From Mobula hypostoma (taxonomy: Eukaryota), in the NCBI RefSeq assembly GCF_963921235.1, contig NC_086097.1:77874001-77938000 (forward strand): 64,000 nt of DNA, in the 5' to 3' direction. Of this stretch, positions 34,225-36,156 are shown one piece after another. A model generated the notes under the pieces. It saw only the letters and a list, made by a program, of their open reading frames with translations. It searched no databases and was not told the origin of the DNA. Position 1 is the stretch's first letter, and each line of letters begins with the position of its first letter. The position numbers and the translations under genes are program-made.

Positions 34225-34820
34225 CGACCCTGGTTTGTCCTCCCAAAGTGCAACACCTCTCAATTGTCTGTATTAAATTCCACTTGTCATTTTTCATCTC
34301 AATTTTTCCAGCTGGTCCAGATCCCACTGTAAACTGCGATAACCTTCCTCACTATCCACTATGGCCCCAGTCTTCCTGGCATCCACAAATTTGCCAATCC
34401 AGTTTATCATGTTATCAGCCAAATCATTGATATGGATGACAAACGGAAACAGATCCCAGTGCTGATCCCTGCAGAACACCACCAGTCACAGGCCTCCAGT
34501 CAGAGAGGCAACCAGCTACTACCACTCTCTGGCTTCTCCCACACAGCCAATGTCAAATCCAATTTACTTCTGAGCATCACACTTAGGAATTCCTTCCCGA
34601 AAGGCATGAGTGAATCAGACAAGTGGACTTGTTTTCACTAGACTCTGATAGTTTCCTGGTTACCCTTATTGATAGCAGCTTTTTACTTAAGATTTAATAA
34701 TTACCTATAATCGTGTGAATTTAAGCTACCCAGCTGTCTTGATTCAATTTAAACTCAGGTCTATAAATCAATATTCCACACAGTCAGATAAATGGCCATA
34801 CCAACACTATACTATCACAT

Positions 34821-35376
34821 GTATGGGGTGTCAGGGAGAGGTAGCACCCCTGGTGGGGGAATATGTCACGTCCTTTTCAAGGCGGTTAATCCACCTTTGG
34901 TCCCCACCTGGCACACAGCTCTCACCTGTGGCTCCCTGTAGCTGTTTGCATGCGACAGCAGCCACACCCCAGGCAATGGCTTCAAGAAGCCGGCTAAACC
35001 AGGTGAGGGTAGCCGACGGGTCTCAAACCCTCGGTGAGATAGGGAGTTGTCTATCCCAGCATGTGAAGACAGACTCCAGTGGATTGAGCGGACGAGACCA
35101 ATGGAAGGTCCAACGGTCAAGAAGGCGGTCACTGCAAGCGTCGTGGAACGTGTAGAGCAGGACAAGACACAGAAGACGTCCTGGTCATCCACTGCGCCTA
35201 GTCCCATCTCCAGCCGTCTCAACTCCGTCTTGCCACTGGATCCACATGGGAATTGGGAAGAGAGAGTGAGGCTGACACTGTGCAACTCTCCCTCACTTAA
35301 ATCAAAATCAAGCACTAGTCTCGACACCGTCATAATGGTGTTAAGGTCCTCGTCAACGTCGACGATGGACGAACAC
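34821..35376 (+). mobile_element. 556-bp non-coding retroelement (RTE-type non-autonomous, SINE-like) with 12-bp TSD
   Basis: Perfect TSD atactatcacat (34809-34820 / 35377-35388). GC/CpG-rich with no RT. The RTE affiliation is inferred from TSD length and 5' UTR character. Confidence 0.8.
34825..35009 (+). ncRNA. HDV-like self-cleaving ribozyme candidate
   Basis: P1 GGGGTGT(34825)/ACACCCC(34964-70); P2 CTCACCTG(34921)/CAGGTGAG(35000); P3 GGC/GCC; L3 starting TCC; P4 GGCTTC/GAAGCC; J4/2 GCTAA. All elements are in nested double-pseudoknot order. Confidence 0.7.
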
Positions 35377-36156
35377 ATACTATCACATCTTGTTGGCCTC
35401 TAAGAACAACAAAAATAGTTTAAATAACTGCTTAAAAGGGTTACAGTTGTAACACAAAAGCATGCTACTATCATTAAACAATGGCATATTGACTGATACA
35501 CAAGTAACAAATATTTCTGCTTAAGATGCTGCATAGTTCCTTGGTGTTTTGAAACTACAGGTTTTCACCATTTTTCAAATTTGAATCCTTTGGCAGAAAT
35601 AAAACACTCAAATGAATCATTCAAGAACTTCCAACAATTCTTGAACTGGCCAGTTATGTCATAAAAATTCATGGAGCAAGGTGACCTTTAAGAGAAACCA
35701 CCATCTCTGAGTTGGTTATACTAGTTAGTTAGGAAGCTAATTTACTAAATGATTTTACATTTGAATCGTTTTCTCTAGTTAGCTTGCACTTGGAAAATAT
35801 CTTTTCCCACTCCATTTCCCTTATTTTTTCCCATTCCAGTTTTGAATTTTAACCATTTGCACTCAGACATTTTTATGCCAAAATGGTTTAAGGCAGGGAA
35901 AATGCATCTTTTAATTTTATTATTAATATGAGATGAATAAATTTGTGATTAGAGGTAAGAATGAGAATCGAAAGGAGTGGAGTAGTCAATGTAACTTCCT
36001 TTTCTCTGTGTTCCAATGCATTTTCAGCCAGTTAGTGAAAACGGAAATCTGTTACTAATCCAAAATGTTTTTAAATTGAATATTTGTTTTCTTTAATTAT
36101 TCCTAGTTTATTCAGTGAGAAAAACAATATAAGGACTGACATGCTGGCTTCTTATA

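Follow-up and report, generated by a model that had tools for sequence, protein, structure and literature searches.

A predicted HDV-like ribozyme with a hairpin in its L3 loop at the head of a bipartite RTE-type element family in Mobula hypostoma

Introduction

The closest described counterparts of the structure reported here are the HDV-like ribozymes located 5′ in non-LTR retrotransposons (R2, L1Tc/ingi and RTE elements), among them mosquito drz-Agam-2, which has a P1.2 helix. With these our candidate shares the P1–P2–P3–P1.1–P4 order, the cut at the first base of P1, the J4/2 cytosine and a long, structured J1/2 joining P1 and P2, as set out in the parts of the sources covered (PMC4908430; PMC3774820); a duplicated P1 has also been modelled for R2 (PMC3774820). 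It differs in that L3 is 26–29 nt long, compared with 7–8 nt in CPEB3 and HDV (10.1101/2022.09.22.508989), in that the P1 strand is doubled in tandem, in that Rfam does not detect it and in that its activity is a prediction.

Protein-free elements with such a ribozyme are also known. The SIDEs of R2 and the NARTc, RIME and SIDER elements of L1Tc–ingi are internally deleted LINEs in which, as in the element here, both the ribozyme at the 5′ end and the recognition end on the 3′ side are retained (PMC3414825; PMC4035085); the present family, by contrast, belongs to another LINE clade, has dispersed T|A targets and comprises thousands of copies in a 3.5-Gb genome. The same build of 5′ UTR plus 3′ tail is found in the bipartite RTEs of Repbase, MAR4_MD, WALLSI3 and RTESINE, which have been proposed to retain the 5′ ribozyme of their LINE (PMC5786205). 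MAR4_MD is ~552 nt long and homologous to our family from its nt 346, and nt 370–519 of the LINE RTE-11_PSi differ from it at ~11 of 150 positions by eye (PMC5786205 and supplement); the parts of that paper covered here contain no ribozyme fold for this RTE lineage. An earlier, sequence-only reading of the locus had held a J1/2 of ~90 nt and a protein-free carrier to be unusual, a view that these precedents do not bear out (PMC4908430; PMC3414825; PMC4035085; PMC5786205).

Here we analyse an insert in a stretch of 64,000 nucleotides from Mobula hypostoma (contig NC_086097.1, positions 77,874,001 to 77,938,000, forward strand), called the window, whose numbering is used throughout. We consider it highly probable that the insert is a 5′-clipped copy of a non-coding family in which the 5′ UTR of a 4.1-kb endonuclease–reverse transcriptase LINE of the same genome is joined to the stop codon and 3′ tail of that LINE, and that the first 190 nt of this family form a predicted HDV-like ribozyme that likely cuts before the first G.

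Results

The insert and its partner LINE

A letter check of the window showed that the insert is 556 bp long and is flanked by an exact 12-bp target-site duplication (TSD; 34809..34820 and 35377..35388), the 5′ copy of which begins with A after T, the T|A target of the family. These boundaries agree letter for letter with the sequence-only reading, as do its P2, P3, 28-nt L3, P1′, P4 and C34994. Open reading frames overlapping the element are short and none was assigned. The same reading had seen no obvious Pol III boxes, and an A-box pattern found no match inside the element. The left flank (34300–34560) is presumably, judged by eye, a decayed minus-strand fragment of another LINE.

One long copy in the pattern sample led to a 4.1-kb LINE in the same genome (L200). 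It starts with GGGGTGT, has a near-exact flanking duplication and contains an open frame of 1109 aa with RVT_1 and Exo_endo_phos domains. The window element is 90.5% identical to L200 over its nt 1–516 and matches it again from the L200 stop codon to the tail. After the predicted ribozyme, the insert consists of the remaining 5′ UTR of the partner LINE (35008..35332), whose final stretch is the complement of the first part of the 3′ UTR, followed by its stop codon TAA, 3′ UTR hairpin and short (CA/CAA) tail (35333..35376). From these alignments we read the element as a LINE 5′ UTR fused to TAA and 3′ UTR with ~3.5 kb deleted. It has the ends of a LINE joined, no open reading frame and many copies with TSDs of their own, which identifies it, at the level of sequence, as a bipartite non-autonomous LINE.

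The partner is likewise classed from its sequence as RTE-type. It has one long AP endonuclease–reverse transcriptase frame, a single-frame layout being a feature of the RTE clade, together with a short 3′ UTR, a (CAA)n-type tail and an A-starting TSD. A-starting TSDs and (CAA)n tails are traits of RTE elements (PMC13295347), and homology by eye extends to RTE-11_PSi, RTE-3_AMi, RTE-1_PSi and MAR4_MD (PMC5786205 supplement). Protein comparison against a reference set without named RTE proteins returned only generic endonuclease–reverse transcriptase, L1 and R2 matches. The carrier is protein-free, as had been supposed; what was taken for a SINE-like oddity is a bipartite element derived by deletion from a LINE of RTE type.

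Several other partners and origins were considered and dropped. Loci with PF20049 had no DNA match to the element, those with PF03372 were other LINE types, and the best protein matches to L163 were a sister LINE without a ribozyme. A Vingi/ingi origin was set aside on the RTE-type partner and tail, and a tRNA, 7SL or 5S SINE on a head that is the LINE's own 5′ end, with no A-box or Rfam match.

The search pattern was also run on metagenome contigs, where it found four loci (L163–L166). Each is a long LINE that shares this head, and two contain frames of 1,100 aa with RVT_1 and endonuclease domains. In viral contigs the pattern gave 0 matches.

An HDV-like fold with covariation in the element head

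A double-pseudoknot descriptor, loosened to accept a long L3 and written after the site was known, matched once in the window and in 0 of 30 block shuffles. P1, P1.1, P2, P3 and P4 can be placed as a nested double pseudoknot in the right order. A predicted J1/2 hairpin domain (34826..34916), closed by P1.2 (34826–35 with 34907–16), is followed by the 5′ strand of P2 (34921..34928), which pairs with 35000..35007, and that of P3 (34930..34932), which pairs with 34961–63. After L3 come P1′, the 3′ strand of P1 (34964..34970), the 3′ strand of P1.1 with a GCAA J1.1/4 (34971..34976; P1.1 reads AG in the window copy and GG in the family), the P4 hairpin (34977..34992) and J4/2 (34993..34999) with the candidate catalytic cytosine C34994. 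P1′ and the 3′ strand of P2 were placed by motif letters and covariation. Equivalents of U20, C21, C22 and G25 and the J4/2 cytosine are present in family copies, and J4/2 shows 0 changes in 180 alignment cells.

Covariation was assessed with one copy each of six families: the window family, a sister family in the same genome, and L163–L166. Two-sided changes were found in 9 of 41 pairs (two each in P1, P1.2 and P2, three in P4), a number reached by 0 of 500 shuffles and compared with 1–3 in slid controls; the relatedness of the six sequences inflates this test, and shuffles can be beaten without structure. The pattern used to find L163–L166 fixed P3, P1.1, J4/2, part of L3 and the start of the L3 hairpin, where invariance holds by construction, and left P1, P1.2, P2 and most of P4 free. 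The MAFFT alignment misplaced P1 of L165 and P2′ of L163 and L164, so that 9 of 41 is an undercount; anchored pairs were scored separately. There are exceptions to perfect pairing: P1 pair 7 is a C–A mismatch in two families, and P2 has one extra base in L163 and L164.

The compensatory conservation of P1, P2 and P4 that the sequence-only reading had named as a check is therefore present, and its central proposal, that a protein-free family of retroelements is headed by an HDV-like fold, is well supported by the comparison of sequences; cleavage is a prediction. Its suggested comparison with Rfam gave nothing, in that no HDV-type model matched the window, the window copy or seven related loci.

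The L3 loop carries a predicted hairpin

In all six families, L3 is 26–29 nt long and can be written as U20-C21-C22-N-N-G25-N plus A, then a hairpin of 5–6 bp and one base (residue numbering of the active-site loop from PMC1874588). In the window copy, the part of canonical length (34933..34940) reads UCCCUGU+A (family UCCCCGU+A), and the hairpin predicted to follow it, as an insertion on the 3′ side of the loop (34941..34959), has arms at 34941–45 and 34955–59. The insert falls at the position of HDV U27, a residue that is dispensable in HDV. With an L3 longer than the 7–8 nt of HDV-like ribozymes, all six families are classed as a variant and not as standard members. A long L3 of 28 nt with its own hairpin, as first noted in the window copy, thus recurs in six families.

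A real ribozyme in which the L3 insert is not a helix, being conserved as sequence (a protein site or tertiary contact) or forming one long irregular stem with P3, is an unlikely reading. The five hairpin pairs contain 0 two-sided changes and, in L166, one mismatch, and the minimum-energy fold of 34929–64 in the window copy is one long stem in another register. Against this, the stem stays at 5–6 bp while the length and letters of its loop vary, the two one-sided changes (L163 and L165) yield G–U pairs, and the same hairpin is predicted in five of the six sequences folded. We therefore favour an inserted hairpin.

One short-L3 pattern run on the element's own genome gave 0 matches. Patterns that allowed a different P1′ or a different start of the hairpin matched 2 and 12 loci, respectively, and every one of these was a decayed copy of the family. 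No HDV-like ribozyme with an L3 hairpin was found in the parts of the literature searched (PMC6765202 and PMC9901934 among them; Ruminski 2011 and Webb 2009 lay outside its scope). The L3 hairpin appears to be an undescribed structural twist on a known kind of element.

The family begins at a tandem P1 strand

The family starts GGGGTGT-AT-GGGGTGT-C, with a first heptamer 9 nt upstream of G34825 that is identical to the second. Among 56 distinct copies, the top matches to queries whose first base was family position 6 or 2, the match begins at the first G in 37, at positions 2–7 in 18 and later in 1. A search anchored at position 15 found the first unit kept in 27 of 30 copies, and a hand count of the 100 listed 19-mer rows gave 64 with intact GGGG, ~9 with one mismatch and at most 4 starting at or near the second unit. 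The 5′ end of the family, as read from DNA junctions, is the first G of the upstream heptamer, which is also the first base of P1. The sequence-only reading had taken a cut at G34825 to define the family 5′ end and had proposed checking whether full-length copies start there; they start 9 nt upstream. G34825 is not the first base of the family because the window copy is a 5′-clipped one: the first 4–5 nt of the family, including GGGG at nt 1–4, are absent, and 34821..34824 hold what is left of the true 5′ strand of P1 (family nt 6–7), followed by the AT linker. An upstream GGGGT as target-site sequence was considered and dropped. The long J1/2 noted earlier stands, at 98 nt instead of ~90, since the family 5′ end is the upstream heptamer.

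A sharp 5′ end is also compatible with an internal Pol II promoter. The fold would then be kept for protection or for binding a protein, and the hairpin in L3, as an insertion in an active-site loop that could impair catalysis, would mark a catalytically weak or silent variant. There are precedents in the parts of the sources covered: the first 77 nt of L1Tc are promoter and ribozyme both (PMC3383444), and for templates of R2, cleavage may be less important than the fold (PMC11331408). However, P1 pairing follows the exact first base across families, and the first part of L3, J1.1/4 and J4/2 keep canonical lengths. Moreover, a young sister LINE (L167–L199; 65% protein identity to L200), which shares element nt 232–510 at 75% and has no ribozyme, has ragged 5′ ends in the sample examined. 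We regard a promoter origin of the 5′ end as quite unlikely and a ribozyme cut as the better account.

The position of that cut depends on which heptamer serves as P1. In the window family both pair 7/7 with P1′, a tie. In L163, the first heptamer has T at position 2, matched by A in P1′, and a compensatory change of this kind marks the first heptamer as P1; in L165 it starts with A, with U opposite. Pairing with P1′ for the first and second unit, respectively, is 7 and 3 in L163, 7 and 5 in L165, 6 and 5 in L164 and 7 and 6 in L166. In each of the six intact representatives, the predicted fold gains 9–16 kcal/mol when the first unit serves as P1. This unit is predicted to be 72–100% unpaired, and freeing the second would cost 6.8 kcal/mol in an intact copy and 11.6 kcal/mol in the window copy; the second heptamer (34825..34831) is accordingly predicted by the folding model to be locked in P1.2, outside P1. 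In one sister-family copy (L258) the first unit is predicted to be paired inside J1/2.

Use of the second heptamer (G34825) as P1, with a cut there that defines the family 5′ end, is very improbable. In its favour, the window copy retains only this heptamer, with a fold 4.6 kcal/mol better than with the clipped first unit. In the sister family the first unit is absent, by an ungapped measure, from 13 of 30 copies (about 9 when inspected), and three units occur in 2 of 30, so that a second site may be used there, as in the duplicated-P1 model of R2 (PMC3774820). Against it, such a cut would erase the first unit within one cycle, few copies start there, and the covariation of L163 involves the first unit only. 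The first heptamer is thus our P1. The sister family (L242–L271) opens with a perfect tandem of 9 nt, in one to three units, and has a C–A mismatch at P1 pair 7.

Copy number and state of the window copy

A search of the Mobula hypostoma genome (3.48 Gb) gave 4,804 candidate copies, of which 40 were scored and 30 retrieved, at ~94% identity. Family-type 5′ ends, counted by an exact 19-mer near the 5′ end, number at least 1,876, a lower bound that covers only sites with a non-C base before the element and includes long copies. The ~560-bp form is the majority among 30 copies in genome order, of which 6 have an intact core by strict criteria.

Exact TSDs of ≥9 nt were found in 43 of 84 copies examined; T precedes 41 of these 43, and A is the first base in 37. 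Among GGGG-starting copies, T lies directly upstream in 43 of 55 (part of this sample excluded C); where a TSD was found, the T is half of the time inside it and half of the time among extra bases. U at −1 is the context of fastest cleavage in genomic HDV (PMC1874588), and a link to the T upstream of these copies is speculation by analogy. T is also enriched at the position 13 nt before the TSD (25 of 43). This is a single peak, whereas in other RTEs a run of T near −10 has been described. One copy (L155) has its first 149 nt inverted relative to the rest, resembling twin priming.

Relative to the majority sequence of the first 30 loci, the window copy is 5.5% diverged (mean 2.2%); in this set, CpG sites change 6–7 times faster than other sites. 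Damage to P1.1 by a CpG-to-CpA change at 34971 had been suspected from the window alone, and the family bears this out: G34971A is a CpG-type change, and 28 of 30 aligned rows, read by eye, keep G. The window copy, then, is without G1–G4, has C22–A38 as a P1.1 pair and would need 11.6 kcal/mol to free its second unit, and for these reasons it is likely inactive as a ribozyme, having lost the first four bases of P1 and one P1.1 pair. Weak P1.1 helices can still cleave (PMC13635239). A competitor of P1′, GCACCCC at 34844–50, had been flagged as a threat to the fold; it is private to the window copy, and the family reads GCACCTC.

The deletion junction and 5′UTR–3′UTR pairing

The deletion junction coincides with a complementary pair between 5′ UTR and 3′ UTR. 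When the whole of L200 was compared with its tail, the longest exact complement measured 10 nt and lay at nt 505; in L163 it is likewise 10 nt, at nt 501, with different letters; shuffled tails reached 10 nt anywhere in 3 of 40 (L200) and 4 of 40 (L163) cases. Inspected by eye, RTE-3_AMi and RTE-1_PSi share this complement and show a change on both of its sides, in the part of the published sequences covered. The junction complement was not the best exact match in L197, L199 or L165, and a duplex-energy scan ranked the junction site best in 0 of the five elements scored. The literature search, which covered its sources in part, found no 5′–3′ pairing for RTE. Pairing as the cause of the place of deletion is suggested by these sequences as a lead.

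A composite form was also observed, with a ~145-nt tRNA-derived SINE exactly at the 5′UTR/3′UTR junction (L102, L129, L134, L144, L151 and ~10 of L242–L271). In L134 and L144, one TSD encloses the whole composite. The form occurs in both ribozyme families and fits template switching at a paired site.

Discussion

Taken together, these results suggest a mechanism that begins with a read-through transcript. J1/2 would fold into a long hairpin in which the basal P1.2 masks the second GGGGUGU and the first stays accessible. P1, P2, P3, P1.1 and P4 would then form, with the extra hairpin protruding on the 3′ side of L3 and the cytosine of J4/2 serving as general acid. Self-cleavage would free the element RNA from longer host transcripts, and the partner protein would recognise the 3′ hairpin and tail of this uncapped RNA and copy it into a T|A target. 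The deletion itself likely arose by a jump of the reverse transcriptase across the loop closed by 5′UTR–3′UTR pairing.

If the ribozyme cleaves, a helix can be accommodated within the active-site loop of the HDV fold, which would offer a new place to attach modules; present searches have a blind spot, as the lack of an Rfam match indicates; and the family is a concrete case of bipartite RTEs spreading through an inherited LINE ribozyme (PMC5786205). The 5′–3′ pairing would offer a testable reason for repeated deletions at one place in this clade. RTE UTRs serve in gene-writing templates (PMC13708176), a use that gives their 5′ processing practical importance; a fold in those elements is conjectural. 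More tentatively, and with less confidence than doubt, we propose that one widespread RTE lineage (LINEs 49–65% identical in protein) carries an undescribed HDV-like subtype, with an L3 hairpin and a doubled P1 strand of which P1.2 hides the second copy, that standard models miss, so that thousands of copies may lie unannotated in large animal genomes, and that the 5′UTR–3′UTR loop sets the birthplace of bipartite short elements.

Related LINEs and a shared stretch

Three observations concern other elements of this kind. The GC-rich 5′ part of the sister LINE without the fold (for example L197:195-746) contains an intronless glyoxalase-family frame (PF13669), partly common to several copies, which we take to resemble methylmalonyl-CoA epimerase; judged from its sequence, it is possibly a captured host mRNA that replaced the ribozyme. 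An unrelated LINE (L061, G000:C36) has an intact 1018-aa frame with DUF6451 that is 28–30% identical to the RTE proteins here. Finally, family nt 358–505 (window ~35173–35320) are ~92% identical by eye to the turtle element RTE-11_PSi (PMC5786205 supplement). Near-identical words to this stretch occur in runs of 11 organisms, and its horizontal transfer is possible on sequence grounds.
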